A stretch of DNA of 64,000 nucleotides from Thermoleophilia bacterium (GCA_025934255.1 JAICYJ010000005.1:3876-67875); one strand, 5' to 3'; numbered from the stretch's first letter, positions 3,719 through 28,456 are shown. A program made the numbers and translations. Notes: generated by a model not told the origin, from the sequence alone.

Positions 3719-5164
3719 ATGTTCAGCCTCGACACCGGCCGCGACGTGCTCACTACCGACCAGCTCGATCAGGTGCACGAGCGGGCGATGACGGTGCTCG
3801 AGGAGATCGGCACCGACGTGCGCCACCCGGCGGCGCTGGAGATGCTGGCCGGACTCGGGCAGAAGATCGACGGCGAGCGTGTCCACTGGGATCGCGAGTT
3901 CGTGATGGAGATGCTCGCCAGGGCGCCGCATGCGTTCACGCTGCGGGGTCGCAACCCCGAGCGAGCGGTGCGGCTGGGCGACTCAAAGCCGGTGCTGACG
4001 CCGGTGGGCGGCTCGCCCTTCTGCTCCGACCTCGAGCGCGGACGCCGGGACGGCACCTACGCCGACCACGTCGAGCTGATCAAGATGGCGCAGGCCGCCG
4101 ACCTGATCACGTGCAACCAGAGCGGCACCGTCGAGGCCGGCGATCTCGATGAGAACAGCCGGCACATGGACATGGACTACTCGGTGCTGCGGTACTCCGA
4201 CAAGCCGCACGTCTGTTACGGCACCTCCGGGCCGAAGGCGCGGGACGCCGTCGCCCTGGCGGCGATCGCCTGCGGCGGCCGCGAGGCGATCGAGCAGACA
4301 CCGGCGCTGATGGGGATCGTCAACCCCAACAGCCCGCTGGTCTGGGACTTCCTGATGGTGGACGCGTTGTCGGAATGGGCATCGGCAGGCCAGCCGGTGG
4401 TGATCACGCCGTTCCTGCTGGCCGGGGCGACGGCGCCGATCACGATCGCCTCCGGGCTGGTGTTGAAGGTGGCGGAGGCGCTGTCGGGCGTGGCGCTGGT
4501 GCAGGCGATCCGGCCCGGTACGCCCGCGCTGTTCGGATCGTTCTTCACGGCCGTGGACATGCGCACCGGCGGCCCCGCCTTCGGCACGCCCGAGTCGGTG
4601 CTGGGGACGCTCGCCGGCGGCCAGCTGGCACGGCGCTACGGCCTCCCCTACCGGGGTGGCGGCGGCCTCTGCTCGTCGAACTCGCTGGACATGGCGTCGG
4701 CGGCGGAGACGGCCATGACGCTGTGGGCGACGATGCTGTCCGGCTCGCACCTGGTGATGCACGCCGCGGGCTGGCTGGAGGGCGGCCTGACGGCGTCGTA
4801 CGAGAAGTTCGTGATCGACCTCGAGATGCTGCGGATGTTCGCGATGATCGACGAGGGCATCGACACCAGCGAGGAGCGGTTCGCGATCGATGCGATGCGG
4901 GAGGAGGGGCCGGGCGGGATGTTCCTGGCCGCCGACCACACGCTCGCGCACTTCCGTGAGTGGATGTTCATGAGCCCGCTGTTCCGCTCGCAGGCCTACG
5001 TGACCTGGCAGAAGCAGGGCTCCGCCACCACCGCCACGCTGGCCACGGCCGAGTGGAAGAAGCTGCTGGAAAGCTACGAGGATCCCGGCATCGACCCGGC
5101 CGTCGACGAGGAGCTGCAGGAGTACATGCAGCGGCGCAGGGCCGAGATCGAGGCGGCCCTCTGA
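3719..5164 (+). CDS. mttB: Trimethylamine methyltransferase (MttB) superfamily, non-pyrrolysine, copy 1
   Basis: LEEIG, NPNSPL, ITPFLLAGATAP, GGPAFGTPE, GLPYRGGGG, HAAGWLEGGL, YEKFVID motifs; uninterrupted ORF. Confidence 0.92.
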   Translation: MFSLDTGRDVLTTDQLDQVHERAMTVLEEIGTDVRHPAALEMLAGLGQKIDGERVHWDREFVMEMLARAPHAFTLRGRNPERAVRLGDSKPVLTPVGGSPFCSDLERGRRDGTYADHVELIKMAQAADLITCNQSGTVEAGDLDENSRHMDMDYSVLRYSDKPHVCYGTSGPKARDAVALAAIACGGREAIEQTPALMGIVNPNSPLVWDFLMVDALSEWASAGQPVVITPFLLAGATAPITIASGLVLKVAEALSGVALVQAIRPGTPALFGSFFTAVDMRTGGPAFGTPESVLGTLAGGQLARRYGLPYRGGGGLCSSNSLDMASAAETAMTLWATMLSGSHLVMHAAGWLEGGLTASYEKFVIDLEMLRMFAMIDEGIDTSEERFAIDAMREEGPGGMFLAADHTLAHFREWMFMSPLFRSQAYVTWQKQGSATTATLATAEWKKLLESYEDPGIDPAVDEELQEYMQRRRAEIEAAL

Positions 5165-7260
5165 TGGGCCGGGAGCAGCGTCACGACATCCTGTTCGAGC
5201 CGGTCCGGATCGGGCCGAAGACGCTGCGCAACCGGTTCTACCAGGTACCTCACTGCACCGGCTTCGGGGTCGAGAAGCCGTGGACGCAGGCGGCGTTCCG
5301 CGGGATGAAGGCGGAGGGCGGCTGGGCGGCGGTCTGCACCGAGTACTGCTCGATCAGCCCCGAGTCCGACGAGACGCCCTACGTGTCGGCCCGGCTCTGG
5401 GACGACGAGGACATGCGGGCGCTGCAGATGATGACCGACCGCGCGCACGAGCACGGCGCGCTGGCCGGGGTCGAGCTGTGGCACGGCGGCGTCTACGCCG
5501 AGGGCCGCGAGTCGCGGCTGCCGCAGCTGGCGCCGTCGCAGATCAGCAGCGACCTGGACAGCGTGGTGGTGCCAAAGACGATGGAGCTGGCCGACATCCG
5601 GCGAGCGCAGGGGGAGTGGGTGGCGGCCGCGAAGCGGGCACGCGGCGCCGGCTTCGACATCATCTACGTGTACGGGTCGCACACCTACCTGCCCACGCAG
5701 TTCCTGTCGCCTGTGTACAACCGGCGCAGCGACGCCTACGGCGGCAGCTTCGAGAACCGTGCGCGGTTCTGGCTGGAGGCGATCGAGCTGGTCAAGCAGG
5801 CGGTCGGCGACGATGTCGCGATCGCGGTGCGGATCGCAGCCGACACGCTGGAGCTGTCAGGGGTGCCGATCGAGGAGGGGCTCGAGTTCATCCGCGCGGC
5901 CGACCCGTTGGTCGACCTGTGGGACGTGGTGATCGGCTCGATGTGGGGGCCGGGGCGGCTCGACTCGGGCCCGTCGCGGTTCTTCGACCAGGGCTACCAG
6001 ATGACCTGGTCGGGCCGTGCTCGCGAGGCGACCGAGAAGCCGATCGTGGTGGTGGGCAGGTTCACCGACCCCGACCGGATGGCCAACCTGGTGCGGGGCG
6101 GTACCGTCGACCTGATCGGCGCGGCGCGGCCGTCGATCTCGGACCCGTTCCTGCCGGAGAAGATCGAGCAGGGCCGCTACGAGGAGATCCGGGAGTGCAT
6201 CGGCTGCAATGCCTGCTACTCGCGGTCGATCTGGGGCCGGCATCTGGGCTGCACGCAGAACGCCACCGCGGGCGAGGAGTACCGGCGCGGTTGGCATCCG
6301 GAGCGGTTCGACCGCGCCGCGAACGCCGACCGGGCGGTGCTGGTGGTGGGCGCCGGACCGGCCGGCATGGAGTGCGCCACGGTGCTCGGCAAGCGCGGCA
6401 TGGAGCTGGTGCACCTGGTGGACGAGGCCGACGACATCGGTGGCTGCATGAGCTGGATCACGCGCATGCCCGGCCTCGGGACGTGGGGCCACGTGGTCGA
6501 CTATCGCCGCGCCCAGATGGACCGGCTGGACAACGTCTCGCTGGGGCTCGGCACGCGGCTGTCGGCGGCCGACGTGCTCGACTACGGCGCCCAGATCGTG
6601 GTCGTCGCGACCGGTTCGCACTGGGCCGGCGACGGCATCAGCGGCGTCACGCGGCTGCCGATCCCCGGCGCGGATGCCACGCTGCCGCACGTGCTGACGC
6701 CGGAGCAGGTGATGGTCGACGGCAAGCGGCCGCCCGGCGGCCGGGTGGCGGTCGTCGACTACGAGGGCTACTTCGTCGGCTCGGCGCTGGCCGAGCAGCT
6801 GCGCAGCGAGGGATACGAGGTCGAGTTCGTGACCAGCCACGAGGCGGTCGCGCCCTACTGCGATCAGACGCTCGAGGGTCGGCCGGTGCGGGAGCGGCTG
6901 AACGCGATCCGGGTGCCGGTGCAGCGGGCGGTGGTGGTCGATCGGATCGACGAGGGCGGGATCGACCTGGTGGGCGAGTTCCAGGCGACGTCGCGGCTGG
7001 CGGTGGACGGCGTGGTGCTGGTCACGCAGCGGCTCTCGGACGAGGCCCTGTACGGCGAGCTGGCAGGCGACCCGGCCGCGCTCGAAGCGGCCGGGATCGA
7101 GGCGGTCTACCGGATCGGCGACTGCGTCGCGCCGCGCTTGATCGCGGACGCGATCTTCGACGGCCACCGCCTGGCGCGCGAGATCGACTCGCCCGACCCG
7201 GAGCGTCCGCTGCCCTACCTGCGCGAGCGGCCGCTGATGGCGGCAACGCCGGCCGTCTGA
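5164..7260 (+). CDS. tmd: Trimethylamine/dimethylamine dehydrogenase family iron-sulfur flavoprotein
   Basis: HDILFEPVRIGPKTLRNRFYQVPHC (flavinylated Cys), TEYC, YVYGSHTY, CIGCNAC...CTQNATAGEEYRRGWHPE, GAGPAG; ATG overlaps the upstream TGA. Confidence 0.9.
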   Translation: MGREQRHDILFEPVRIGPKTLRNRFYQVPHCTGFGVEKPWTQAAFRGMKAEGGWAAVCTEYCSISPESDETPYVSARLWDDEDMRALQMMTDRAHEHGALAGVELWHGGVYAEGRESRLPQLAPSQISSDLDSVVVPKTMELADIRRAQGEWVAAAKRARGAGFDIIYVYGSHTYLPTQFLSPVYNRRSDAYGGSFENRARFWLEAIELVKQAVGDDVAIAVRIAADTLELSGVPIEEGLEFIRAADPLVDLWDVVIGSMWGPGRLDSGPSRFFDQGYQMTWSGRAREATEKPIVVVGRFTDPDRMANLVRGGTVDLIGAARPSISDPFLPEKIEQGRYEEIRECIGCNACYSRSIWGRHLGCTQNATAGEEYRRGWHPERFDRAANADRAVLVVGAGPAGMECATVLGKRGMELVHLVDEADDIGGCMSWITRMPGLGTWGHVVDYRRAQMDRLDNVSLGLGTRLSAADVLDYGAQIVVVATGSHWAGDGISGVTRLPIPGADATLPHVLTPEQVMVDGKRPPGGRVAVVDYEGYFVGSALAEQLRSEGYEVEFVTSHEAVAPYCDQTLEGRPVRERLNAIRVPVQRAVVVDRIDEGGIDLVGEFQATSRLAVDGVVLVTQRLSDEALYGELAGDPAALEAAGIEAVYRIGDCVAPRLIADAIFDGHRLAREIDSPDPERPLPYLRERPLMAATPAV

Positions 7261-7503: not shown

Positions 7504-8319
7504 TCAGCTGGGCGTGATGCCGAGCCGGATCGTGTAGCCGATCAGCATCGGTCGCGGCTCGGGCAGCCGTTCCCGGGCGATGCGCGTGAGCGCGTCCATC
7601 GTCTCCTCCAGCTCCGGCGCGCGGCCTTCGAAGATCGCGGTCGGGCCTCCCAGCGAGTGGGCGAGGTCGGTCACCGCTTCCGCGTCGGCCGTCGTCTCGG
7701 CGTGGCAGTGCACCTCGCGCGCTAAGGCGAACAGCCCGCTCTCGCGCAGCCTGGCCACGTGCTCGCGCTTCGGCCACTGCGAGGCCCCGGCGTGGATGCC
7801 GAGCCGCTCCCGCGCCGCCCAGCGCACGTCGATCACCGCGGCGAAGGCCGCGTCGACCTGCGGCTCGATCACCGGCACGACGTCGTAGTCGTACGCGCCG
7901 AACACGCCGCCGGGACGGAGCACCCGCGCCACCTCGGGCAGCACCGCGGCCGGATCCATCCAGTGGAACGACTGCGCGCAGGTGACGATGTCGGCCGATC
8001 CGGCCTCGAGGCCGGTCGCATCGGCATAGGCCTCCACGAACGTGACGTTGGCTTCGGCGGTCGTCGCCCGCGCCCGGGCCAGCATCGCCGGATTCGCCTC
8101 GACGCCGACCACCCGCTCGGCGCGGGCCGCCCAGGCACGGCTCGAGAGCCCAGTGCCGCTGCCCAGGTCGACCACCAGCTGCGGCCGGCCGCCCGCGCAG
8201 CGTGTGAGCACGTCCAGCGCGACCGCCGGAGGACTGGGACGGGCACCGTCGTAATGGTCGGCGAACCCCTCGTTCGCGTACCCCGACCGCCCGATCAGAT
8301 CGCGCGAGAACGTGCTCAC
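7504..8319 (-). CDS. Class I SAM-dependent methyltransferase
   Basis: VVDLGSGTG motif I, VGVE, ADIVTCAQSFHW, RVLRPGG; GTG start 6 nt after TAGCAT. Confidence 0.88.
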   Translation of the reverse strand: MSTFSRDLIGRSGYANEGFADHYDGARPSPPAVALDVLTRCAGGRPQLVVDLGSGTGLSSRAWAARAERVVGVEANPAMLARARATTAEANVTFVEAYADATGLEAGSADIVTCAQSFHWMDPAAVLPEVARVLRPGGVFGAYDYDVVPVIEPQVDAAFAAVIDVRWAARERLGIHAGASQWPKREHVARLRESGLFALAREVHCHAETTADAEAVTDLAHSLGGPTAIFEGRAPELEETMDALTRIARERLPEPRPMLIGYTIRLGITPS

Positions 8320-8353
8320 ACCTCAATGCTAGACGGCCACTAGGATCCCGGTG

Positions 8354-8638
8354 ATGGCGGAGTACCGGATCACTTACTGGCGTGAGATCCCCTCGATGGT
8401 GACCGCCCGCGACGGTGCGGCCACGTCCAAGGCGGCGCTGCCCGACCGCTTCCAGGAGGCCATCGACGAGGCCGCCATGCGCCAGGGCATGGCCGGCTCC
8501 GACGCCTACCTGGAGCAGTGGCATCACGGAGCATGGGAGCCGGCGGACGGTACGCCCGACGAGCTGGTCGCCACCCTCTCGGAGCAGCTCGACAACGACT
8601 ACGACGCGGCGCGCCTGGAATCGCTGCTGGAGGTGTGA
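8354..8638 (+). CDS. Small conserved protein of the so-called 'virulence factor' (PF13769-like) family
   Basis: YWREIPSMV...LPDRFQEAIDEAAM...SDAYLEQW pattern; translationally coupled to the Hcy methyltransferase; start 8351 or 8354. Confidence 0.72.
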   Translation: MAEYRITYWREIPSMVTARDGAATSKAALPDRFQEAIDEAAMRQGMAGSDAYLEQWHHGAWEPADGTPDELVATLSEQLDNDYDAARLESLLEV

Positions 8639-9540
8639 TGGAACAGATCGCAACACTGCTGGGAGACACGCGGCCGGCGCTCAGCGACGGTGCCATCGGC
8701 ACCATGCTGCAGGCGGCCGGTCTCATGCCCGGCGCCTCCCCCGAGATCTGGAACGTCGAGCGGGCCGACGCCATGCGCGTGATCCACACCGCCTACGCCG
8801 ACGCCGGCGCGCGCCTGCTCACCACCAACACCTTCGGCGGCACCCGCCCTCGCCTGGCCCTGCACGGCCACGAGGATCGCGTGCACGAGCTGAACGAGGC
8901 CGGAGCCCGCATCGCCCGCGACGTGGCGGACGGCTGCGATGCGCTGGTGCTCGGCAGCATCGGCCCCACCGGCGACCTGATGGAGCCGCTGGGGCTGCTC
9001 AGCCACGACGACGCCGTCGACCTGTTCGCCGAGCAGGCCGGCGGCCTGGCCGCCGGCGGCGCCCACATCCTGCTGTTCGAGACGTTCAGCGACCTGGGCG
9101 AAGTGCGCGCCGGCGTCGAGGGGGCGCACCGCGCCGCACCCGACCTGCCCGTGGCCGTGACCATGACCTTCGACCTGAAGGGCCACACGATGATGGGTGT
9201 CAGCCCGTCCCAGGCGCTGGCCGAGATATCCGCGCTCGACGTCGAGCTGATCGGCGGCAACTGCGGCAGCGGGCCCGACGAGATCGAGGCCGTGATGGTG
9301 ACCATGTCCGCCGAGCGTCCGGACGGCGTGCTGCTGCTCGCTCAGAGCAACGCCGGCCTGCCGCAGCTGGTCGGCGACGAGTTCCGCTACGGCGGCACGC
9401 CGGAGGTGATGGCCGACTACGCCGTGCGCATGCAGGAGCTCGGTGTCGACGTGATCGGTTCATGCTGCGGCAGCACGCCCTCGCACACGGCCGCGATGCG
9501 CGAGGCGCTCGGCCTGCACGTCCAGACCGCGCGTGGATGA
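8638..9540 (+). CDS. Homocysteine S-methyltransferase domain protein (stand-alone MetH N-terminal/Bmt-like)
   Basis: LSDGAIGT, TTNTFG, GSIGP, LFETF, Zn ligands GGNCG and GSCCGS, SNAGLP. Confidence 0.9.
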   Translation: MEQIATLLGDTRPALSDGAIGTMLQAAGLMPGASPEIWNVERADAMRVIHTAYADAGARLLTTNTFGGTRPRLALHGHEDRVHELNEAGARIARDVADGCDALVLGSIGPTGDLMEPLGLLSHDDAVDLFAEQAGGLAAGGAHILLFETFSDLGEVRAGVEGAHRAAPDLPVAVTMTFDLKGHTMMGVSPSQALAEISALDVELIGGNCGSGPDEIEAVMVTMSAERPDGVLLLAQSNAGLPQLVGDEFRYGGTPEVMADYAVRMQELGVDVIGSCCGSTPSHTAAMREALGLHVQTARG

Positions 9541-9546
9541 TTGAAT

Positions 9547-10949: not shown

Positions 10950-10965
10950 GCCCCGGGATTCTGCC

Positions 10966-12405: not shown

Positions 12406-12417
12406 TCGTCCTCTCCC

Positions 12418-12451
12418 TAAGATCTTAATATGTGGAACGATCGTTCCACAT
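12418..12451. promoter_or_regulatory. Divergent promoter with perfect 22-bp palindrome (candidate IclR operator)
   Basis: ATGTGGAACGATCGTTCCACAT (12430-12451) is a perfect palindrome; TAAGATCTTA (12418-12427) gives a TAAGAT -10 on both strands. Confidence 0.7.
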
Positions 12452-14775: not shown

Positions 14776-14793
14776 GAGCCGAAAGGACGCGGA

Positions 14794-19230: not shown

Positions 19231-19655
19231 GCGAGCCCGCAACCGGCGGTTGCCTGTGCGGCGCCGTGCGCTACGAGGTGCGGGGGCCGCTGCGCGACAT
19301 CCTGATCTGCCACTGCGTCGAATGCCGGCGCTGGCACGGAAACGCGGCGGCCAGCACGGCGGCCGCCCGCGCGGATCTGGCCCTGACCGGGCAGCGCGGG
19401 CTGCGCTGGATCGCCAGCCCCGAGAGCGACGCGCATGCGCGCCGTGGCTTCTGCGGCGAGTGCGGCTCCAGCCTGTTCTGGGACGCGCCTGGACGCGACT
19501 ACGTCGCGATCGCGGCCGGCTCGCTGGACGGCGAGACCGGGCTGCGCATCGCCGGCCACTGGTTCACTTCCCAGAAGGGCGACTGGTACGAGCTGCCCGT
19601 CGACGGCCTGCCGCAGCACGAGCGTTCGGCCGCGACCGAGGGCAGTGCCCCCTGA
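19227..19655 (+). CDS. GFA (glutathione-dependent formaldehyde-activating enzyme/CENP-V) family protein
   Basis: GGCLCGAVRY, CHCVECRR, FCGECGS. Confidence 0.85.
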   Translation: MSEPATGGCLCGAVRYEVRGPLRDILICHCVECRRWHGNAAASTAAARADLALTGQRGLRWIASPESDAHARRGFCGECGSSLFWDAPGRDYVAIAAGSLDGETGLRIAGHWFTSQKGDWYELPVDGLPQHERSAATEGSAP

Positions 19656-19663
19656 ACACCGGG

Positions 19664-20104
19664 TCAGGGTGCGGGAGTGAGCCCGTGCTGCCGCATCACC
19701 GCGACCATCGCGGCCGGATCTGGCGGGCCGCCGGCCGAGGCCAGGACGACGGCCTCCAGGTCGCGGAAGTATTGCGGGCCGAGCACGCCCGGCGTAACGA
19801 TCGCGAGCGCCGTTGCGTCGGCGTCGTACCCGTTGGCGAAGTGGTGGACGACGCCCCGCGGGATGCAGAGCACCTCGCCCGGGCCGACCTCTGATGCCTC
19901 ACCCGCGACCGTCCAGCTGAGAGTGCCGGCCAGCCCGTAGACGGTCTCTTCGTACCCGTCGTGGCTGTGTGCGATCGGTACCCGCGCACCTGCCGGCACG
20001 TCGAACTCGAACATCGCAACCGCGCCTCCGGAGGCCTCACCCTCCAGCAGGAAACGGACCCCGATCTGCCCCACGTGGATCTGCTCGTGCATGTCGGTTC
20101 CCAT
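19664..20104 (-). CDS. Cupin domain protein
   Basis: AHSHDGYEE and IPRGVVHHF cupin motifs. Confidence 0.82.
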   Translation of the reverse strand: MGTDMHEQIHVGQIGVRFLLEGEASGGAVAMFEFDVPAGARVPIAHSHDGYEETVYGLAGTLSWTVAGEASEVGPGEVLCIPRGVVHHFANGYDADATALAIVTPGVLGPQYFRDLEAVVLASAGGPPDPAAMVAVMRQHGLTPAP

Positions 20105-20125: not shown

Positions 20126-20179
20126 GGTAAAGTGACTTGACGATACATGAACCAGGAGACTTCGTCAAGTCGCTTTACC
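20126..20179. promoter_or_regulatory. Two inverted copies of an 18-bp site (candidate MarR operators)
   Basis: GGTAAAGTGACTTGACGA (20126-20143) and TCGTCAAGTCGCTTTACC (20162-20179) are 17/18 reverse complements; each is itself a GTnAAG-N3-CTTnAC palindrome. Confidence 0.62.
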
Positions 20180-20623
20180 GATGGCGTCGCGGAGCGCGAG
20201 CCGTTGGGCCCGCCTCTGATCGGGGCGCTGCTGCGCATGCCCGTCGACGCGGTGCGGCGGCGAATGATCGAGCGGCTGCACGAGCACGGGTTCGACGACA
20301 TCGACCAGGCCCACCTCACCGTGCTGCGCTATCCCGGCCCGCAGGGCCGGCGCCCGTCCGACCTGGCGGCGGAGTTGGGCATGAGCAAGCAGGCGCTCAA
20401 CTATCAGCTGGGCGAGCTGGAACGGCGCGGCTATCTCGAGCGCCGGCCCGACCCCGAGGATCTCCGCTCCCGGCGGATCGTGCTGACACGGCGCGGCGTC
20501 GCCGCTGCCCACGTGATCCGTGACGCCGTGGCCGAGCTCGAGACGCTGTGGGCGCGGGAGCTGGGAGCGAAGCGGTACGCGCAGCTGCGGGGCCTGCTGG
20601 TCGAGCTCAACCGCGTGATCTAA
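20147..20623 (+). CDS. MarR family transcriptional regulator
   Basis: SDLAAELGMSKQA, LERRGYLERRPDPEDLRSRRIVLT winged helix. Confidence 0.88.
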   Translation: MNQETSSSRFTDGVAEREPLGPPLIGALLRMPVDAVRRRMIERLHEHGFDDIDQAHLTVLRYPGPQGRRPSDLAAELGMSKQALNYQLGELERRGYLERRPDPEDLRSRRIVLTRRGVAAAHVIRDAVAELETLWARELGAKRYAQLRGLLVELNRVI

Positions 20624-22599
20624 GGAGGGTCTCCGACTATCGACTCGGCCAGCAGCGTGGCCACGTCCGCCACCCGCAGCTTGCTGCCGCTGGTGCGTAC
20701 GCCGTCGTCGAGCATCACGGTGCAGAACGGGCAGGCCACCGCCAGCGTCTCGGCGCCGGTCTCGTCGGCCTGCCGCACCCGCTCCTCGTTGATCGCGCCG
20801 CCGCGCTCCTCCATCCACATGTGCGCGCCGCCGGCGCCGCAGCAGAACGTGCGCTTGCCGCTGCGCTCCATCTCGACCGGCGTGCCCACCGCCTCCACCA
20901 GCTGCCGCGGATCGGCCATCACGTCGTTGTGGCGGGCCAGGTAGCAGGAGTCGTGGTAGGTGATCTGCGCGTCGCCTGGCTTCGGCTCGATCCGGCCATC
21001 CCGCACCAGCTCGGCCAGCAGCTCGGTGTGGTGCATCACCTCGTAGCGGCCGCCGAAGTCCGGGTACTCGTTGGCCAGCGTGTTGAAGCAGTGCGGGCAG
21101 CTGGCCACGATCTTCGTCACCCCGGACTCGTTCAGCGTCTCGACGTTCTGCTCGGCGAAGGCCTGGAACACGTACTCGTTGCCCATCCGCCGGGCCGGGT
21201 CGCCGGTGCACGACTCGCGCGGGCCCAGGATCGCGAAGTCGACCCCGGCCGCCTGCAGCAGCTTCGCCGTCGACACGGCGGTCTGCCGTGCCCGCTCGTC
21301 GAACGAGGCGGCGCAGCCGACCCAGTAGAGCACCTCGGGCGCCGGATCGCCGGGCTCGAGCACCTTCACGCCCAGGCCATGCGTCCAGTCGCCGCGCTCC
21401 TGCTGCGCCTTGCCCCAGGGGTTGGACGACCGCTCGACGTCGCGCAGCATCGGCTCGGCCTCGGCCGGGAACCGCGCCTCGGCCATCACCAGGTGGCGGC
21501 GCAGGTCGACGATGTGGTCGATGTGCTCGATCGAGACCGGGCACTCGTGCACGCAGGCGCCGCACGTCACGCAGTCCCAGACGACGTCGTCGGTGACCGC
21601 GTTTGGCACCAGCGGCTGCGGGTCGGCGCCCTCCGCGCCTGATAACAGCTTCGGGCCCACTTCGAGCAGGTGGTCGCGCAGGCCCATGATCAGCAGCTTG
21701 GGCGAGAGCTCCTTGCCGGTCGCGTAGGCGGGGCAGACGTCCTGGCAGCGACCGCATTCGGTGCAGGTTGCGGTGTCCACCATCTGCTTCCAGGTCATGT
21801 CGGTGAGCGTGCCGGAGCCGAGCCTGATCTCGTCTTCCGGCACGTCCGGGTCGTCGAACACGAGCGGCTCAAGCCGGCCGCGTGCGCGCGTGCGCCCGAA
21901 GAACACGTTGACCACGGCGGTGATGATGTGCAGGTGCTTCGAGTAGGGCAGGTAGGCCAGGAAGCTCAGGATCAACAGCACGTGCGCCCACACGAACACG
22001 CGCTCGAGCAGCTTCGTGCCGTTCCCGCCGCCGAACAGGTTGGAGAGCGCGTTTGCGACCGGCGACCACGACGCCGGCCACTCGTTCAGCCCCAGCGCGA
22101 TGCGGGTGGCGTGCCACAGCAGCAGGGTGGTGACGATGCCCGCGATCATGGCCAGGATGAAATCGGCCTCGCCCATGTGGCTGCCCTCGAACCGCGCCGG
22201 CCGCTGCACCTTGCGGATGAAGAAGGCCGCGCACACGCTCAGCAGCACCAGCAGCGCGAACAGGTCGACCAGGAACGCGAACCAGCCCTGGTGCCCGAGC
22301 CAGGGCAGCGTCGCGTCGCGATCGACGGCTCCGATCATGGCCATGATGATGGTCGGGAACAGCACGATGAAGCCCCAGAAGATCAGCGCGTGCATCACCC
22401 CCGGGCCCAGCCGTTGCAGCAGCTTGCGCTGCCCGATCGCGACCACCGCCTCCTGGCGCACGCGCTGCGGCACGTCGTCGAACCTGGGCGCGGGCTTGCC
22501 CAGGCGCATGATCCGGACGAGCAGCCGGGCGCGACGGGCGAAGATGCCGCCGGCCACCGCCAGCGCCACCAGCAGCGCGATCAGGGCGACGGGCTCTAT
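20620..22599 (-). CDS. Membrane-bound Fe-S oxidoreductase (FadF/EtfD/HdrD-like; TM + 2x4Fe-4S + CCG domains); start uncertain
   Basis: About 5 TM helices with His; CTECGRCQDVCP, CVTCGACVHECP, YWVGC, CPHC, YHDSC, CCGAGG, ACPFC; start ATA 22599 or GTG 22569. Confidence 0.85.
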   Translation of the reverse strand: MEPVALIALLVALAVAGGIFARRARLLVRIMRLGKPAPRFDDVPQRVRQEAVVAIGQRKLLQRLGPGVMHALIFWGFIVLFPTIIMAMIGAVDRDATLPWLGHQGWFAFLVDLFALLVLLSVCAAFFIRKVQRPARFEGSHMGEADFILAMIAGIVTTLLLWHATRIALGLNEWPASWSPVANALSNLFGGGNGTKLLERVFVWAHVLLILSFLAYLPYSKHLHIITAVVNVFFGRTRARGRLEPLVFDDPDVPEDEIRLGSGTLTDMTWKQMVDTATCTECGRCQDVCPAYATGKELSPKLLIMGLRDHLLEVGPKLLSGAEGADPQPLVPNAVTDDVVWDCVTCGACVHECPVSIEHIDHIVDLRRHLVMAEARFPAEAEPMLRDVERSSNPWGKAQQERGDWTHGLGVKVLEPGDPAPEVLYWVGCAASFDERARQTAVSTAKLLQAAGVDFAILGPRESCTGDPARRMGNEYVFQAFAEQNVETLNESGVTKIVASCPHCFNTLANEYPDFGGRYEVMHHTELLAELVRDGRIEPKPGDAQITYHDSCYLARHNDVMADPRQLVEAVGTPVEMERSGKRTFCCGAGGAHMWMEERGGAINEERVRQADETGAETLAVACPFCTVMLDDGVRTSGSKLRVADVATLLAESIVGDPP

Positions 22600-23564
22600 C
22601 CGGCGCCCGCCTTCCGCAGCTCGGCCGTGATCGCCGGGATCACCTCGTGCAGGTCGCCGATCACGGCGTAGTCGGCGTTGGCGATGATCGGCGCCTCCGG
22701 GTCGACGTTGACCGCGATGATCCGCTTGGCACCCTTGCAGCCGGCCATGTGCTGGGTGGCGCCGCTGATGCCGCAGGCCAGGTACACCTCCGGCGCGATC
22801 TTGGTGCCGGTCTGACCGACCTGGTCGGTGTGCGACCGCCAGCCGGCGATGGTGACGGCCCGCGAGCACCCGACGGCGCCGCCCAGCAGCGCGGCCAGTT
22901 CCTCGGCCGGCGCGAAGCCCTCCGGAGAGCCGGCACCGCGCCCGCAGCTGACCACGAACCTGGCGTCCGCCAGGTTGACTCCGCCCTCGCTGCTCTGCTC
23001 CACGGTCTCGACCACCCGCACCACCAGGTCGGCATCGGCCAGCGACGGAGTGAAGCGCTCGAGGGTCGCCGGCCCGGCGCCCACCTCGGCCGCCTCGACC
23101 GTGTGCGGCGCCACCGTCAGCAGCTTGACGGGGCCGTGCAGGCGCGCGTCCTCGAGCAGGCTGCCGCCCCAGCGGATGCGGGTCACGGTGAGGGGGTCGC
23201 CCGCCTCTGCGGCGACGCAGTTCGCGGCCAGCGGCAGGTCGCCGAGCGCCGCCGCGTGCGCGAGCACCTCGTTGCCGCGCTCGCTGCCGGCGGCCGCCAC
23301 GGCGGCCGGGGACAGCCGCTCGATCAGCTCGCCGATGCAGCGTGCCAGGGCCACGGGCGCGTGGCTGGCGAGCGCCTCGTGCTCGGCGATGTGCGCCGTC
23401 GCCACCCCGTGGGCGCCCAGCCCGGCGGCCGCGTCCTCGGCGCCCGGGCCGGCCAGCAGCGCGTGCAGCGGTGCGCCGCCGGTGATCTCGCGGACCAGTG
23501 CGATCGCCTGCAGCGAGGCATCGTCGGGCCGGCCGTCCTGATGCTCGACGTAGACCAGCGTCAT
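22596..23564 (-). CDS. etfA: Electron transfer flavoprotein alpha subunit
   Basis: ARFVVSCGRG, GAVGCSR, QVGQTG, GISGATQHMAG, AVNVDPEAPI, YAVIGDL. Confidence 0.92.
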   Translation of the reverse strand: MTLVYVEHQDGRPDDASLQAIALVREITGGAPLHALLAGPGAEDAAAGLGAHGVATAHIAEHEALASHAPVALARCIGELIERLSPAAVAAAGSERGNEVLAHAAALGDLPLAANCVAAEAGDPLTVTRIRWGGSLLEDARLHGPVKLLTVAPHTVEAAEVGAGPATLERFTPSLADADLVVRVVETVEQSSEGGVNLADARFVVSCGRGAGSPEGFAPAEELAALLGGAVGCSRAVTIAGWRSHTDQVGQTGTKIAPEVYLACGISGATQHMAGCKGAKRIIAVNVDPEAPIIANADYAVIGDLHEVIPAITAELRKAGAG

Positions 23565-24325
23565 GTCACCAGCCCCGCCCGGCGCAGCACCTCGACGACG
23601 GCCGGAGCAGCTTCGGGCCCGTGGCCCAGGATCTCCGCCTGCTTGCCCTGTCCGGGCGGCAGCCGCAGCCGCAGCTTCTCGACGCCCGCGTCGCGGCGCT
23701 CCGGAGCGCTCGCGGCCAGGGGCTTGCGCTTGGCCCGCAGGCGGCCCGGCACCGATGGGTAGCGGGGCAGGTTGAGGCCCTCCTTGACGGTGATCACCGC
23801 CGGCAGCGGCACGTCGTAGACGTCGCGGCCGGAGGCCGTCTCCTGCTCGCAGCGGGCGCGGCCGTCCTGCACCGTGATGCCCTTGACGCCGGTCACGCAG
23901 GGCCGCCCCAGGGCGTGGGCGACGCGGATGCCGACCTGGTAGTTGCCCGAGTCGGCGGACTCGTTGCCGAAGAAGATCAGGTCGAACTCGACGCCCGCCG
24001 CCCGCTCGGCCTCGATCGCGGCGACGATCGCCGCGGCCGTGGCCTGGCCGTCGACCTCGTCCGCCGTCTCGAGCAGGATCGCGCGGTCGACGCCCAGCGC
24101 CATCGCGTCGCGCAGCTGCTCCTCGGCCTCGGACGGGCCCAGCGCCAGCACCACCGACTCGCCGCCGTTCGCTTCGATCAGCCGCACCGCCTCCTCGACG
24201 CCGCACTCCTCATGGGGGCTGATGGTGAAGCCGAGGTGGCGCGTCTGGATCGACTGCTCGTCCTCTGTCAGCACGATCGTGCCGCCCGTCATCGGCACCC
24301 GCTTGGCGCAGACGAGGATGTTCAC
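23561..24325 (-). CDS. etfB: Electron transfer flavoprotein beta subunit
   Basis: ILVCAKRVP, VEEAVRL, ALGVDRA, DLIFFGNESADSG, PRYPS. Confidence 0.92.
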   Translation of the reverse strand: MNILVCAKRVPMTGGTIVLTEDEQSIQTRHLGFTISPHEECGVEEAVRLIEANGGESVVLALGPSEAEEQLRDAMALGVDRAILLETADEVDGQATAAAIVAAIEAERAAGVEFDLIFFGNESADSGNYQVGIRVAHALGRPCVTGVKGITVQDGRARCEQETASGRDVYDVPLPAVITVKEGLNLPRYPSVPGRLRAKRKPLAASAPERRDAGVEKLRLRLPPGQGKQAEILGHGPEAAPAVVEVLRRAGLVT

Positions 24326-26841
24326 GACCGGATCCGTTCGTTGTCGGGATCGAAGATCGGCGTCGAGCCTGCCACCGCCACCGTCACCGGGTAGCGCTCG
24401 TTCAGGTACTCAACGGCCAGCTCGGCGCCGACCTGCGCCTGCTCGGGCGGCAGATAGGCCATCAGCAGGTGCTTGCCGACCGACGGCCCGGCGCCGGCGC
24501 TGGTCACGTACGACCGCCGGCCCCTGCTGTCGGTGAGGGGCTGTCCGTCGCGGGTCTGGATCGGCTCGCGGCCCAGCATGTACCGCTTCACGCCGGAGGC
24601 GGAGGTGTGGTCGTCGACGGTCAGCGTGCACATGATCGCGGCCGGCTGCTCGTCGCGGTGCCGCAGGTGGGCCTGCTTGCCGACGAAGTCCTCGTCCTTC
24701 ACCTTCGGCCCGGCCATGCCCGCCTCGCACACGTTGTACTCGCTCTCCAGCTCGAAGCCGTAGGCGCGGTAGCACTTCTCGAGCCGGCCGGTGGTGCCGT
24801 AGACGCCGATCCCGACCGGCGCGAGGCCGTGCGGCCGGCCGGCCTCCGCGATCACGTCCCACAGCTTCTGGCCCTGCTCGATCGGCACGTACAGCTCCCA
24901 GCCGAGGTCGCCCACGTAGGAGATGCGGGAGGCCAGCACCCGCAGCGTGTCGATCTCGATCGTCCGGCAGCTGCCGAAGCGGAAGCCCTCGTGGGAGACG
25001 TCGTCGCGGGTCACCGAGCCCAGGATGTCACGCGCGCGCGGGCCCCAGAGGCCGAGCGTCGTCCAGGCCGAGGTCAGGTCGGCGATCTGGGCGGAGCCGT
25101 CCTGCGGCAGGCGGTCGGCGAACCACTTGCGGTCGGCGGGCCCGTGGGCGCCGCCGGTGACGACCCGGAACAGCTCGTCGTCCAGCCGCATGATCGTGAG
25201 ATCGGCCTTGAAGCCGCCGCCCGGCGTCAGCACCGGCGTGTAGACGACGCGGCCGACCGGCACGTCCATCTGCCGCACCGCCACGCCCTGCACGGCCTCG
25301 AGCGCGCCGGGGCCGGCGACGTCGAAGATGGTGAACGCGGACAGGTCGACCATGCCGGCGCGGTCGCGCATGGCCAGGTGCTCGGCGTTGATGATCGGCG
25401 ACCACCAGCGCGCGTCCCACTCGGCCTCGCGCTGGTTGATGCGGTCGGCGTACTCCTCCAGCAGCGGCGCGTTCGACTCGTACCAGTGCGGCCGTTCCCA
25501 GCCCGCGGCCTCGAAGAAGACGGCGTCCAGCTCCCGCTGGCGGGCGTGGAAGGGCGGCAGGCGCACGTCGCGGTTGGAGGCCCACTGCTCGGACGGATGG
25601 ATGATGCCGTAGGTCTTGTTGAAGCCCTCCGAGGTGCGGGCGCGGACGTGGGCGCGGGTCTTCTGGTGGTCCCAGAAGCGGGCGATGTCGGACGAATGCA
25701 GGTCGATCTCCGACTCGCCGTGCGTCATCCACTCGGCCACCGCCTTGGCGATGCCCGGCCCCTCCTTCACCCACACGGCCGCGCACGACCAGAGGCCGCG
25801 CACCTCGTGCGTCTCGCCCAGCAGCGGCATCCCGTCCGGCGTCAGCGACAGCAGGCCGTTGATCGCGTACTTCACGCCCACGCTCTCGTCGCCCACGATC
25901 TCGGGCATCAGCTCCAGCGCATCCTCCATCTGCTTGTCGAAGTCGGCCTGCGTGAAGGGCAGCTCGGTGGGCGACAGGGCCGCCTGCTCGATCGAGGGGA
26001 TCTCCTCCGGATCGTGCAGGATCGGCCGGTGCGCGTAGGAGCCGATCTCGAGGCCGATGCCGTCCTGGCGCTCGTACATGAAGGTGTCCATGTCGCGCAC
26101 GATCGGGTACTCGATGTGTCTTGTGGAGCTGGCGAAGCGCGGCACCGGCCCGATGTCGATCATCTGGTGGACGGCCGGCGTGAGCGGGATCAGGGCGCCG
26201 GCCATCTGCGCGATCGCCGGGCTCCAGACGCCGCAGGCCACGACCACGACCTCGGTCTCGATGTCGCCGCGAGTGGTGCGCACCCGGCGAACGCGGCCGC
26301 GCTCGACGTCGACGCCCAGCACCTCGGTGTTGGCCGAGATCGTGAGCGCACCGGCCGCGACGGCCCGCTCGCGCATGATCGTGCCCGCCCGCAGCGAGTC
26401 GACCACACCCACGCCCGGCGAGGAGAACCCGCCCAGCAGGATCGTCTCGTCGATGAACGGCACCATCTGCTTGATCTCGGCCGGCGTCACCATCGAGACG
26501 CGGTCGATCCCCCAGGCGTGCGCCGACGACATGCGCCGGTGCAGCTCCTGCATGCGCTGCTCGGTGCGGGCCACCTCGATGCCACCGCTCTCGGTGAACA
26601 CGTCCAGGTCCTGGTACTGGCGCATGCTGTCGAGCGTCAGCGCCGTCATCTCCTTGGAGTGGTCGACCGGGAAGATGAAGTTGGATGCGTGGCCGGTGGA
26701 GCCGCCGGGGTTGGGGAACGGGCCCTTGTCGAGCAGCACCAGGTCGCGCCAGCCCAGCTCGGACAGGTGGTAGGAGATGCTGTTTCCGACGATGCCGGCG
26801 CCGATCACGACGGCGCGGGCAGATGTGGGCAGATCGCTCAT
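24322..26841 (-). CDS. Dimethylglycine oxidase/dehydrogenase-like GcvT-family FAD/folate enzyme
   Basis: VVIGAGIVG, GGSTGHA (flavinylated His), GSYAHRP, TPDG.P..G, GWERP, SRISYVGDLGWE, YRAYG; C-terminal GcvT domain. Confidence 0.9.
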   Translation of the reverse strand: MSDLPTSARAVVIGAGIVGNSISYHLSELGWRDLVLLDKGPFPNPGGSTGHASNFIFPVDHSKEMTALTLDSMRQYQDLDVFTESGGIEVARTEQRMQELHRRMSSAHAWGIDRVSMVTPAEIKQMVPFIDETILLGGFSSPGVGVVDSLRAGTIMRERAVAAGALTISANTEVLGVDVERGRVRRVRTTRGDIETEVVVVACGVWSPAIAQMAGALIPLTPAVHQMIDIGPVPRFASSTRHIEYPIVRDMDTFMYERQDGIGLEIGSYAHRPILHDPEEIPSIEQAALSPTELPFTQADFDKQMEDALELMPEIVGDESVGVKYAINGLLSLTPDGMPLLGETHEVRGLWSCAAVWVKEGPGIAKAVAEWMTHGESEIDLHSSDIARFWDHQKTRAHVRARTSEGFNKTYGIIHPSEQWASNRDVRLPPFHARQRELDAVFFEAAGWERPHWYESNAPLLEEYADRINQREAEWDARWWSPIINAEHLAMRDRAGMVDLSAFTIFDVAGPGALEAVQGVAVRQMDVPVGRVVYTPVLTPGGGFKADLTIMRLDDELFRVVTGGAHGPADRKWFADRLPQDGSAQIADLTSAWTTLGLWGPRARDILGSVTRDDVSHEGFRFGSCRTIEIDTLRVLASRISYVGDLGWELYVPIEQGQKLWDVIAEAGRPHGLAPVGIGVYGTTGRLEKCYRAYGFELESEYNVCEAGMAGPKVKDEDFVGKQAHLRHRDEQPAAIMCTLTVDDHTSASGVKRYMLGREPIQTRDGQPLTDSRGRRSYVTSAGAGPSVGKHLLMAYLPPEQAQVGAELAVEYLNERYPVTVAVAGSTPIFDPDNERIRS

Positions 26842-26888
26842 GTGGTCTCTCCCGCGCAGGTGCGCGTGGGGGTTGCCGGGAGGGCTCC

Positions 26889-26917
26889 GGTCTGGTAGAC
26901 AACTCATATATCAGACC
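26889..26917. promoter_or_regulatory. Imperfect inverted repeat in the divergent dmg/gntR promoter (candidate GntR operator)
   Basis: GGTCTGGTAGA-N7-TATATCAGACC; 9 of the outer 11 positions pair. Confidence 0.5.
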
Positions 26918-26918
26918 C

Positions 26919-27563
26919 ATGCAGACCCTGCAACTTCCCACCGAGCTGCTCTCCGACCGCGCCTATGCTGCCCTGCGCGACCGGCTGGTGTCGCTCGAGA
27001 TCCCACCCGGGGCGCCGATCGACGAGGAGGCGCTGACCGGCCAGCTGGGCGTCGGGCGCACGCCCGTGCGTGAGGCGATCCGGCGCCTGGCGCTGGAGCG
27101 GCTGGTGGTCGTCTACCCGCGCCGCGGCACCTTTGCAGCGGCCATCAACATCACCAGCCTGACCGACATCACCGACGTGCGGGTGCAGCTCGAGGCGCGC
27201 GCCGCCGAGCGTGCCGCGACGCTGGCCGACGCCGACGACCGCCGCGAGGCCGGCGAGCTGATCGCGAAGCTCGATGCGGCCGAGTCCGGCCAGCGGCGGC
27301 TGATCGAGCTGGACGCGGAGGTGCACCGGTTCATCTACCGCTGCTCTCGCAACCCGTACCTGGAGCAGGATCTCGATCGCTACCTGAACATGTCGCTGCG
27401 GATCTGGCACCTCACCTGGGACCGGCTGCCGCCGCTGGAGCAGCGGATGCGCGAGCACGGCGAGCTGCTGGAGGCGATCCGGCAGGGCGACCGGGAGCGG
27501 GCGCGCGAGATCGCCGCGGCGCACGTGCTGGCGTTTGCCGAGGAGATGCGGGCGGCGCTGTGA
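26919..27563 (+). CDS. GntR (FadR/FCD) family regulator
   Basis: LSDRAYAALRD, LGVGRTPVREA, PRRGTF, EHGELLEAI. Confidence 0.9.
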   Translation: MQTLQLPTELLSDRAYAALRDRLVSLEIPPGAPIDEEALTGQLGVGRTPVREAIRRLALERLVVVYPRRGTFAAAINITSLTDITDVRVQLEARAAERAATLADADDRREAGELIAKLDAAESGQRRLIELDAEVHRFIYRCSRNPYLEQDLDRYLNMSLRIWHLTWDRLPPLEQRMREHGELLEAIRQGDRERAREIAAAHVLAFAEEMRAAL

Positions 27564-28456
27564 CGCTGCAGGCGGCACCGGGCGATTGGCTCCCCGGCCG
27601 CAGGCTGCTCCTCAAGCGCGAGGACGACCACGAGCTGGGCGCGTTCAAGTGGCGGGGGGCGCTGCCGGCCGTGGAGCAGTACCGCGAGCAGGGCCACGCA
27701 TGCGTGGTCACGGCCTCGACCGGTAACCACGGCGCCGCCACCGCCTGGGCGGCCGCCCGGCACGGCATGACCGCCGTGGTGTTCGTGCCGGAGCGGGCAA
27801 GCGCCGCGAAGCTGGAGCTGCTGCTTGGCCTGGGCGCCGAGCTGGTGGTGGGGGGCGCCGACCTGGACGAGGCCAAGGCGGCGGGGATCGAGCACGCGCG
27901 GGCGCAGGGGCTGCCGTTCTTCCAGGACGGCGCGGAGCCTGCTCAGTACCGGGGCTACGGTGGCATCGCCGACGAGATCCTGGCCGAGGTGACGCCCGAT
28001 GCGGTGCTGGTGCCGGTCGGAAACGGCGCATTGCTGGCCGGGATCGGCCTGCGTCTGGGCTCGCGGTCGCCGGCCACGCGGCGGATCGGCGTGGTCGCCT
28101 CCGGTGCGCCGGTGATGGCGCGCAGCTTCGAAGCAGGCCACGCGGTGGAGTCGTCCCGAAGCGACACGTTTGCAGATGGCATGGCCGTGCGAGTGGCGAT
28201 CCCCGTCGCCGTGGAGGCGCTGGCGACCGCCGCCGACGAGATGGCCGAGGTCACCGATCGCGAGATCGCCGAGGCGGTGGGGGTGTTCGCGGAGGCCGGT
28301 ATGCGGGTCGAGGGCTCCGCGGCGGCCGCGCTGGCGGGCGCGCGCCGGCTGGACGGCCGGCTGGAGGGCGTCGTCGTCCTGATCGTGACCGGGCGCAACA
28401 TCGACGACGACCTGTGGAAGCGCGCCGTCGAGCGGCCCCAGACGTTTCCCGGCTGA
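27560..28456 (+). CDS. PLP-dependent serine/threonine dehydratase (PALP) family enzyme
   Basis: LKRE...GAFKWRG (PLP Lys), ASTGNHG, VPVGNGAL, ADGMAV, EGSAAA, TGRN. Confidence 0.82.
   Translation: MTLQAAPGDWLPGRRLLLKREDDHELGAFKWRGALPAVEQYREQGHACVVTASTGNHGAATAWAAARHGMTAVVFVPERASAAKLELLLGLGAELVVGGADLDEAKAAGIEHARAQGLPFFQDGAEPAQYRGYGGIADEILAEVTPDAVLVPVGNGALLAGIGLRLGSRSPATRRIGVVASGAPVMARSFEAGHAVESSRSDTFADGMAVRVAIPVAVEALATAADEMAEVTDREIAEAVGVFAEAGMRVEGSAAAALAGARRLDGRLEGVVVLIVTGRNIDDDLWKRAVERPQTFPG

Follow-up and report, generated by a model that had tools for sequence, protein, structure and literature searches.

The DNA analysed here (the window) is a stretch of 64,000 nucleotides from a Thermoleophilia bacterium (GCA_025934255.1, JAICYJ010000005.1:3876-67875), and the subject of this study is a block within it, positions 3719 to 28456, whose genes point to the catabolism of methylated amines. 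At its centre MttB2, a methyltransferase of the MttB superfamily, diverges from an operon that encodes a corrinoid protein, enzymes that would pass methyl groups to tetrahydrofolate (THF), and a corrinoid activase. Around this core lie a second methyltransferase of the superfamily, MttB1, coupled to a gene resembling that of trimethylamine dehydrogenase (TMADH); a cytochrome P450 with its ferredoxin; and an operon encoding a relative of dimethylglycine dehydrogenase (DMGDH) and an electron-transferring flavoprotein (ETF) (Table 1). On balance it is probable that the block is a modular neighbourhood for the demethylation of quaternary amines in an aerobic soil member of Gaiellales, made up of a core and two cassettes peculiar to the lineage. 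A first-pass annotation had described it as one integrated island. The inventory then given has worn well: searches of Pfam, NCBIfam, and PDB recovered every gene class claimed, at or near the positions given, though the ferredoxin of 62 amino acids had been overlooked.

Genes were called using a third-position GC filter (the window is about 71% GC), and their families were checked by sequence searches of the three databases. Mechanically drawn open reading frames (ORFs) proved too long for the TMADH-like protein, P450, EtfA, the FeS protein, the alcohol dehydrogenase (ADH), RACo, the homocysteine S-methyltransferase module (HcyMT), and the GntR regulator, and these were trimmed by means of alignments and start codons. 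An ORF at 19190-19894 was rejected as a gene: it matches no family, and the real gene, in another frame, is that of the GFA-domain protein. Judged by start codons and intergenic distances, the block comprises at least nine transcription units, with 11 overlapping junctions inside the main operons (nine of 4 nt and two of 1 nt) and three local regulators (IclR, MarR, and GntR).

Composition is uniform all along the block, GC lying between 0.69 and 0.75. ARAGORN found no tRNA, and none for pyrrolysine is evident. A scan of Rfam gave zero matches (no cobalamin, THF, S-adenosylmethionine (SAM), or glycine riboswitch), so regulation at the level of RNA is not evident. No integrase or transposase domain was present among the ORFs scanned with Pfam, flanking repeats not having been searched for. 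The uniform GC and the lack of tRNA and mobility domains argue that the block is a gene neighbourhood rather than a horizontally transferred island, as the first reading had called it.

Table 1. Genes of the block and the gene preceding it, with the transcription unit to which each is assigned (aa, amino acids; PLP, pyridoxal phosphate)
Feature	Position	Strand	Unit	Domains, matches, and junctions
Abhydrolase_11 alpha/beta hydrolase	3029-3673 (start 3029 or 3083)	+	1 (possibly)	PF20408, E 3.7e-50; 45 nt upstream of MttB1
MttB1, non-pyrrolysine MttB superfamily, 481 aa	3719-5164	+	1	PF06253, E 6e-168
TMADH-family FMN/4Fe-4S/ADP-binding amine dehydrogenase, 698 aa	5164-7260	+	1	PDB 1djn/2tmd, E 2e-219; 1-nt overlap
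Class I SAM-dependent methyltransferase	7504-8319	-	2	Methyltransf_11/25; alone
PF13769 small protein, 95 aa	8351-8638	+	3	PF13769, E 2e-19; translationally coupled to HcyMT
HcyMT, homocysteine S-methyltransferase-domain module, MtgE-like ("Bhmt"-annotated type)	8638-9540	+	3	PF02574, E 9e-62; 1-nt overlap
Ferredoxin, Fer4_13/15-type, 62 aa	9550-9735	-	4	Start overlaps P450 stop by 4 nt
Cytochrome P450, 405 aa	9732-10949	-	4	PF00067; 16 nt downstream of MttB2
MttB2, non-pyrrolysine MttB superfamily, 479 aa	10966-12405	-	4	PF06253, E 3.5e-184
IclR-family regulator	12432-13232	+	5	IclR_C + HTH_IclR; opens corrinoid operon (4-nt overlaps mostly), divergent from MttB2
Corrinoid protein, MtgC-like (B12 cap + B12-binding)	13229-13897	+	5	PF02607 + PF02310
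Methylenetetrahydrofolate reductase (MTHFR), non-canonical	13894-14775	+	5	Weak Pfam MTHFR match
Pterin-binding methyl-corrinoid:THF methyltransferase, MtgD/MtgA-like	14794-15666	+	5	PF00809
RACo/RamA-type ATP-dependent corrinoid reductive activase	15669-17528	+	5	Fer2 (2Fe-2S) + RACo_linker + Raco_middle + RACo_C_ter
DUF1638 protein	17525-18103	+	5	PF07796, E 2e-24
Zn-dependent alcohol/formaldehyde dehydrogenase (ADH), class-III-like	18100-19230	+	5	ADH_N + ADH_zinc_N
GFA-domain protein	19227-19655	+	5	PF04828, E 1e-20; ends corrinoid operon with ADH
Cupin	19664-20104	-	6	Pfam; orthologue in 0/80 loci
MarR regulator	20147-20623	+	7	Pfam; 3/80 loci, only closest relatives L003-L005
Membrane FeS oxidoreductase	20620-22569	-	8	CCG x2 + Fer4 (4Fe-4S dicluster)
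EtfA	22596-23564	-	8	ETF + ETF_alpha; 4-nt overlaps with neighbours
EtfB	23561-24325	-	8	ETF domain; 4-nt overlaps with neighbours
DMGO/DMGDH-family protein	24322-26907	-	8	DAO + FAO_M + GCV_T; first gene of DMGDH-etfBA-FeS operon
GntR/FCD regulator	26919-27563	+	9	Pfam; divergent from DMGDH operon
PLP-dependent Ser/Thr dehydratase	27560-28456	+	9	Pfam; NCBIfam threonine/serine dehydratase models below cut-off

The corrinoid core and its spread in Thermoleophilia

The core is anchored by MttB2, which aligns over its full length with MtgB of Desulfitobacterium hafniense (DhMtgB) and with the protein 4YYC of Sinorhizobium meliloti (E 1e-119 to 1e-124 against PDB 4yyc, 2qne, and 9yce). Its ORF and that of MttB1 (the two proteins are 41% identical) are uninterrupted, which makes both of them non-pyrrolysine members of the superfamily. 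The glycine betaine site of DhMtgB has been defined experimentally as Y97, R312, H348, and F356, of which R312 is conserved in all characterised members of the family and H348 less so (PMC13080624). At these positions MttB2 has Y, R, H, and G, matching 4YYC, where position 356 is likewise glycine and a tryptophan is found in an AGW motif. From this resemblance, MttB2 may be regarded as a putative MtgB, i.e., a glycine betaine:corrinoid methyltransferase.

In the divergent operon, the MtgC-like corrinoid protein carries a DxHxxG motif (DVHDIG) at residue 102, and its best NCBIfam model is MtgC_2 (209 bits, under the cut-off of 370). The pterin-binding methyltransferase passes NCBIfam PRK07535 (294 bits with a cut-off of 259). 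As for the MTHFR, a profile made from eight orthologues matches 5,10-methylenetetrahydrofolate reductase (PDB 7xg9, E 8e-58); to judge by sequence, it is a genuine reductase, of the non-canonical actinobacterial type and not a classical MetF, and its functional counterpart in the Ruegeria system would be MetF2. In systems with a split methionine synthase, DUF1638 is genetically partnered with the RamA-like activase (PMC5764234). The zinc-dependent ADH falls under the NCBIfam cut-offs of TIGR03989, TIGR02818, and TIGR03451, and together with the GFA-domain protein it may serve in the detoxification of formaldehyde. On the far side of MttB2, the best NCBIfam model for HcyMT is PRK07534, the S. 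meliloti-type "betaine-homocysteine S-methyltransferase" (299 bits, below the cut-off of 338). By analogy with published systems, HcyMT would provide the homocysteine acceptor arm, as a module of a split methionine synthase (PMC12478193; PMC5764234).

A search with MttB2 of one genome per GTDB species gave 537 relatives, and the best 80 loci were analysed by tblastn with every protein of the block, taking in flanks of 10 kb on either side of MttB2. All 80 come from metagenome-assembled genomes (MAGs) of Thermoleophilia (Gaiellales, Gaiellaceae, and Solirubrobacterales), with MttB2 relatives of 74-98% identity, four of them at 97-98%. The closest are from Gaiellales/Thermoleophilia soil MAGs, in keeping with the actinobacterial host that had been proposed. 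L003-L005, and also the loci L093-L154, were obtained from Microflora Danica and JGI soils. Among the 51 loci that are fully flanked (at least 9 kb on both sides of MttB2), MtgC is present in all, and IclR, MtgD, RACo, and DUF1638 are each present in 50. The order of the core also recurs in 50 of the 51, which represent different species of Thermoleophilia. The clustering is far beyond chance.

Other genes of the block are less widely shared. HcyMT was found in 28 of the 80 loci, many of them from Gaiellales, and PF13769 is co-conserved with it in 25. ADH (25/80) and GFA (16/80) are both common in Gaiellales, and MTHFR occupies the same position in 12 of the 80. MttB1 with the TMADH-like gene was found in six and the P450-ferredoxin pair in five, all of them closest relatives. 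The best explanation is that the corrinoid core is ancient and conserved across Thermoleophilia and that the two cassettes were added in this lineage.

The genes for the cupin and MarR are filler between the two large operons. The second of these operons begins with the DMGDH-family protein (E 8e-160 against N,N-dimethylglycine oxidase, PDB 1pj5) and ends with a protein having four N-terminal hydrophobic segments (residues 54-210) ahead of its FeS and CCG domains, a putative ETF:quinone oxidoreductase of the EtfD-like kind. The gene for this FeS/CCG protein follows etfBA in the window and in L069, L070, L073, L074, L076, and L079. Orthologues of the DMGDH-family protein (69-74% identity) adjoin the corrinoid operon in L018, L023-25, L031, and L073, and DMGDH-EtfBA, with or without the FeS gene, is found in two arrangements: in Gaiellaceae it comes straight after DUF1638, and in Solirubrobacterales it is convergent. 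Counts of this operon are lower bounds, since in arrangements like that of the window the 10-kb flank stops short of it. Adjacency in two arrangements is good evidence for a functional link with the core. Also, orthologues of the GntR regulator adjoin MttB2 in many Solirubrobacterales loci.

These neighbours bear on a different account of the core, in which it is mainly biosynthetic: a split cobalamin-dependent methionine synthase, with the MttB proteins acting as suppliers of alternative methyl donors and the dehydrogenases and P450 unrelated to it. This synthase would be made up of MtgC, MtgD, HcyMT, RACo, and DUF1638. In Phaeobacter inhibens these five together constitute the essential methionine synthase (PMC5764234), Ruegeria pomeroyi mutants in mtgC and mtgD are methionine auxotrophs (PMC12478193), and HcyMT adjoins MttB2 in many Gaiellales. 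However, most neighbourhoods in Solirubrobacterales are without HcyMT, while MttB2 (the anchor of the search) is always there, and the repeated adjacency of DMGDH and EtfBA makes sense only for the catabolism of betaine. In the published model, moreover, the two roles are compatible. A core devoted mainly to methionine synthesis therefore seems unlikely.

The MttB1-TMADH-like and P450-ferredoxin cassettes

MttB1 (E 1e-102 to 1e-114 against PDB 4yyc, 9yce, and 2qne) has G, R, H, and G at the four positions of the DhMtgB site, and its sequence suggests a putative quaternary-amine:corrinoid methyltransferase without specificity for glycine betaine. Its stop codon overlaps by 1 nt the ATG of the TMADH-like gene (TGATG), whose product is 52% identical, over its full length, to TMADH of Methylophilus methylotrophus W3A1. 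The OYE-type FMN domain, the Cys-x2-Cys-x2-Cys-x(11-12)-Cys cluster, and the ADP-binding domains are all present, and the protein retains Y60, S74, W105, and Y174 besides the catalytic and cofactor residues compared below. Of the aromatic bowl, Y60 is kept, W264 can be aligned only with flanking indels, and W355 is deleted, with a tryptophan three residues later.

The coupling of the two genes is strict. When the TMADH-like protein was compared with metagenome contigs, counting at 69% identity or more only those loci with readable upstream sequence, all 22 had an orthologue of MttB1 (61-99% identity) immediately upstream. Among 56 loci with a TMADH homologue of 52-65% identity, none had any MttB gene nearby; three such loci of the sister clade that were scanned (60-65% identity) show mixed neighbours (DAO, GATase, aldehyde dehydrogenase, and others). 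Seen from the other side, an overlapping OYE/TMADH-type gene comes after each of the MttB1 homologues of 79, 76, 73, and 67% identity, and those at 66% and 65% are without such pairing. Three of the four paired loci have no corrinoid gene nearby; in the case of L084, a core lies on a separate contig (L033) of the same MAG. MttB1 and the TMADH-like gene thus form a discrete two-gene unit that moves independently and has to rely in trans on MtgC, MtgD, and RACo. This obligate pair is the new element of the block: a literature search, with most subscription journals outside its reach, found no description of an MttB gene coupled to one of the TMADH family.

In this lineage the MttB1 operon may begin with the Abhydrolase_11 gene, whose product perhaps releases a quaternary amine from an ester. 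A divergent DUF72 gene (2277-3122, minus strand) lies on the other side of the hydrolase gene. The closest relatives and L082 keep both genes beside the pair; more divergent copies of the pair do not, and in L083-L085 Abhydrolase_11 is absent upstream of MttB1. On the downstream side, the SAM-dependent methyltransferase has a weak, sub-threshold NCBIfam match to CpaM (corrinoid protein-associated methyltransferase) and is kept in that position only among the closest relatives. In L082, where MttB1 is 79% identical, a choline-dehydrogenase-like GMC oxidoreductase (13572-15272) replaces it between the TMADH-like gene and PF13769-HcyMT.

Other copies show other company. In the most distant copy of the pair (L085:1-8000, 67% identity), the two genes are divergent from etfBA and have as neighbours a proline-racemase-family gene, a creatinase/M24 peptidase, and a heterotetrameric sarcosine-oxidase-like set. 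A gene of the proline racemase family also lies near the copy of P450-ferredoxin in L090, and these neighbours may hint at substrates of the N-methylated proline type. ETF is the known electron acceptor of TMADH. In L165 (1212-8284), a TMADH homologue of 55% identity stands immediately before EtfB, EtfA, the FeS/CCG protein, and a DMGDH-like gene, an independent link of TMADH-family enzymes with the ETF/EtfD-like module. L119 (2963-9540), part of a 250-kb metagenome contig, has two TMADH-like paralogues (64-65% identity) about 2.4 kb apart and no MttB nearby. The homologue on S. meliloti pSymA (45% identity) has ABC/TRAP transporter and dehydrogenase genes around it, a setting that is not stc-like.

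Could the substrate be trimethylamine (TMA) itself? MttB1 might convert tetramethylammonium to TMA for a true TMADH, or the two enzymes might offer alternative routes for TMA. The identity of 52% to the Methylophilus enzyme is in line with this, and so is the conservation of Y60, S74, and W105, residues that separate specificity for TMA from that for dimethylamine. The best plasmid-borne homologues are found, moreover, in users of methylamines such as Paracoccus aminovorans and Aminobacter aminovorans. But of the loops that form the bowl, that of W355 is shorter and that of W264 remodelled, and MttB1 retains R312 and H348, which in MtgB bind the carboxylate of the substrate (PMC13080624). Also, non-pyrrolysine members of the MttB superfamily are not known to use TMA (PMC10805028), and the known tetramethylammonium route of methanogens employs a homologue of MtmB (PMC13044021). 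TMA or tetramethylammonium as the substrate is very unlikely.

The second cassette follows MttB2. The P450 has an intact heme motif (FGGGAHHCIG), and its closest solved relative is AurH (PDB 3p3l; E 6e-78, 38.4% identity over 391 aligned residues), which scores 266 bits as against 180 or less for every other solved match. AurH, from Streptomyces thioluteus, is CYP151A (PMC7369989). A family in the CYP scheme requires more than 40% amino-acid identity, a threshold that this protein, CYP151-like in the first reading, narrowly misses, AurH being the sole member compared. The ferredoxin was found by tblastn with the ferredoxins that follow P450 in L090 and L091, two other actinobacterial contigs (64-67% identity, E 3e-25), and it was on these that the Pfam assignment to Fer4_13/15 was made.

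P450-ferredoxin stands next to MttB2 in only five species, all of which also have MttB1/TMADH-like; its insertion there is recent and confined to one small clade. Elsewhere, P450 orthologues of 79, 69, and 61% identity also have this small ferredoxin behind or close to them, but in other contexts: with a GntR regulator and a Pro_racemase-family gene; in a SAM-cycle cluster; and in a cluster resembling one for amine catabolism, with ferredoxin reductase, aminotransferases, aldehyde dehydrogenase, and a Peptidase_C26 hydrolase. In L091, the P450-ferredoxin pair, SAM synthetase, and S-adenosylhomocysteine hydrolase adjoin a gene (4843-6585) encoding a 580-aa fusion of a PF02574 homocysteine S-methyltransferase with a class I SAM methyltransferase. 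No description of a P450-ferredoxin add-on to such a core was found in the same literature search.

With the spread of both cassettes in hand, the claim that the block is a single integrated, co-regulated island, evolved as a unit to treat quaternary, tertiary, and cyclic amines by three parallel chemistries, can be weighed. The parts are indeed contiguous over 25 kb with hardly any unrelated genes, four relatives at species level, as well as metagenome contigs L096 and L154, have the order from DUF72 to ADH intact, and P450-ferredoxin lies beside MttB2 only where MttB1/TMADH-like is also present. However, the block holds nine or more transcription units and three separate local regulators, the parts are spread unequally (80, 6, and 5 of 80 loci), both cassettes also occur alone elsewhere, and there is neither a mobility gene nor a compositional signal. 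An island of this sort is improbable, and this part of the first-pass annotation should be given up, even as its general idea, the catabolism of methylated amines with transfer of methyl groups to THF or homocysteine, fits the evidence.

A proposed route for quaternary amines

What has been shown above (the families of the genes, their cofactor motifs, the overlaps within operons, and the synteny) suggests a pathway in which the substrates, the flow of methyl groups and electrons, and the roles of P450, ADH/GFA, and the dehydratase are proposals. By the action of MttB2, glycine betaine would lose one methyl group to the Co(I) corrinoid protein, and the pterin-binding methyltransferase would pass that group to THF. 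The non-canonical MTHFR would then oxidise methyl-THF to methylene-THF. Alternatively, the PF13769/HcyMT module might send the methyl group to homocysteine, acting as a split methionine synthase. RACo and DUF1638 would re-reduce corrinoid that has become oxidised. The remaining dimethylglycine would be demethylated by the DMGDH-family enzyme to sarcosine and glycine, with electrons passing through EtfBA and the membrane FeS/CCG oxidoreductase to the respiratory chain. Glycine and methylene-THF could yield serine, which the PLP-dependent dehydratase would convert to pyruvate and ammonia.

Beside this route, MttB1, using the shared corrinoid machinery in trans, would take a different quaternary amine to the tertiary amine, and the coupled TMADH-like dehydrogenase would demethylate the product, giving electrons to ETF and formaldehyde to ADH/GFA. 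P450-ferredoxin may perform a further oxidative N-dealkylation. One could go further and suppose that MttB1, the TMADH-like enzyme, and P450-ferredoxin work in turn on a single quaternary amine other than glycine betaine (possibly proline betaine or something choline-like), switching chemistry at each step: quaternary to tertiary amine by MttB1, tertiary to secondary by the dehydrogenase, and secondary to primary, or a ring C-N bond, by P450. The corrinoid, ETF, and formaldehyde modules would then be shared, and MttB1/TMADH-like would be a new, co-evolving two-enzyme unit. We give little credence to so complete a line.

Even the modular neighbourhood favoured here has to reckon with contrary signs. 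F356 of the DhMtgB site is missing from MttB2, and both Y97 and F356 are missing from MttB1. With two of the three positions of the TMADH bowl in remodelled loops, the amine oxidised may not resemble trimethylamine. ADH and GFA occur in many loci without either formaldehyde-releasing enzyme, which weakens the formaldehyde rationale, and the unrelated contexts of P450-ferredoxin, together with its presence at the core in only five species, mean that its link to amine catabolism may be accidental. Separate regulators argue against common induction. Also, Pfam scans of the block turned up no transporter for betaine or amines, and MttB1, MttB2, MtgC, HcyMT, ADH, and the TMADH-like protein all fall short of the NCBIfam equivalog cut-offs.

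In soil, quaternary amines such as betaines and choline are among the chief osmolytes and the chief exudates of plants and microbes. Gaiellales and Solirubrobacterales are abundant in soil and very rarely cultured. Until now the B12-dependent MtgBCDE route had been demonstrated in marine Proteobacteria alone; in Thermoleophilia it appears to be nearly universal, and if so, it would extend to a major group of soil bacteria and add a large demand for cobalamin in soil. The strict pairing of MttB with a TMADH-like enzyme also offers a hypothesis by which both clades might be deorphanised, since the second enzyme should act on what the first one produces. At present, the labels applied to these genes by annotation pipelines, "trimethylamine methyltransferase" and "FAD-dependent oxidoreductase", hide the pathway.

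Some other features of the window may be recorded. The best NCBIfam models for the TMADH-like protein, ADH, EtfA, and EtfB, all sub-threshold, are "mycofactocin-associated"; no genes of mycofactocin biosynthesis (mft) were seen in the window. A gene for an encapsulin shell protein lies at 50022-50825 (minus strand; Linocin_M18, E 3e-79). At 37879-40032 (minus strand) there is an ORF of 717 aa with a strong coding signal and no Pfam match. The segment from 38 to 40 kb has an unusual AT skew (+0.30) and a GC of 0.75, the highest in that part of the window.

Comparison with known systems

Glycine betaine demethylation has been demonstrated genetically in R. pomeroyi DSS-3, where it involves MtgB (pfam06253), MtgC, and MtgD (Mausz et al., PNAS 2025, PMC12478193). 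The system there also includes a strongly induced MetF paralogue, RamA, and DUF1638 (PMC12478193), and MtgE, a "Bhmt"-like PF02574 protein, completes a split methionine synthase (PMC12478193; Price et al., PMC5764234), a split MetH having been shown in P. inhibens (PMC5764234). MtgBCDE has also been traced in S. meliloti and across marine Proteobacteria; as many as seven MttB paralogues may have a single core in common; genes for the demethylation of dimethylglycine and sarcosine are often co-located; and a serine ammonia-lyase is induced (PMC12478193). As to Actinomycetota, 5% of marine mtgC reads were assigned to them (PMC12478193), and in peatland Actinobacteriota express mtxB methyltransferase genes for methylated amines, in a report without cluster analysis (PMC10805028). 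Within the reach of the literature search, no paper on this system in Thermoleophilia was found.

Judged by its protein families, the core described here is an MtgBCDE-type system, a known kind in a new phylum, and the earlier suggestion that the whole combination was undescribed must be narrowed to the MttB1-TMADH-like pair and the P450-ferredoxin add-on. The likeness takes in the non-pyrrolysine pfam06253 methyltransferase, the separate corrinoid protein, the PF00809 methyltransferase, MTHFR, the RamA-like activase, DUF1638, and the PF02574 module. It extends to the co-located genes for demethylation of dimethylglycine, the associated serine-deaminating enzyme, and several MttB paralogues for one corrinoid core. 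Unlike the proteobacterial systems, that of Thermoleophilia (Actinomycetota) is arranged in tight operons, its MTHFR is of a non-canonical mycobacterial type in place of a MetF paralogue, and its dehydratase is PLP-dependent in place of SdaA. The ADH-GFA pair that closes the operon, the extra MttB in an operon with a TMADH-family gene, and the P450-ferredoxin behind the MtgB-like gene also set it apart.

The anaerobic MtgABC/Mtp, Mtc, Mty, and Mth systems of Desulfitobacterium hafniense, Eubacterium limosum, and Methanolobus vulcani follow the same logic of corrinoid protein, THF methyltransferase, and RamA. MttB2 and MttB1 are 38-41% identical to DhMtgB and share R312 and H348 with it, whereas F356 is replaced, as in 4YYC, by glycine with a tryptophan nearby. 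The present host is probably aerobic, to judge by its P450 and ETF-linked dehydrogenases. Different fates may be envisaged: methyl groups would be oxidised or enter methionine instead of feeding acetogenesis or methanogenesis, and the tertiary-amine product would be processed further instead of being excreted.

The remaining parts have their own counterparts. PipA and MorA are mycobacterial secondary-amine monooxygenases of CYP151, and in the mor and pip operons a small ferredoxin gene follows that of the P450; unlike these, the P450 here has no reductase gene adjoining it. The FeS/CCG protein presumably resembles mycobacterial EtfD (Rv0338c-type), which likewise combines membrane segments at its N terminus with a 4Fe-4S dicluster and a pair of CCG domains and is encoded immediately after etfBA, but here the gene is dedicated to an amine dehydrogenase operon. 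Finally, within the wider family of TMADH, dimethylamine dehydrogenase, and histamine dehydrogenase, the TMADH-like protein shares with TMADH of W3A1 (2tmd/1djn) Cys30, the site of 6-S-cysteinyl-FMN, the Y169-H172-D267 triad, R222, the four 4Fe-4S cysteines, the ADP-binding domain, and an ETF nearby, and differs from it in the loop indels at W264 and W355 of the substrate bowl. From its sister clade (52-65% identity, 56 loci) it differs in that its gene is always translationally coupled to one of the MttB superfamily.

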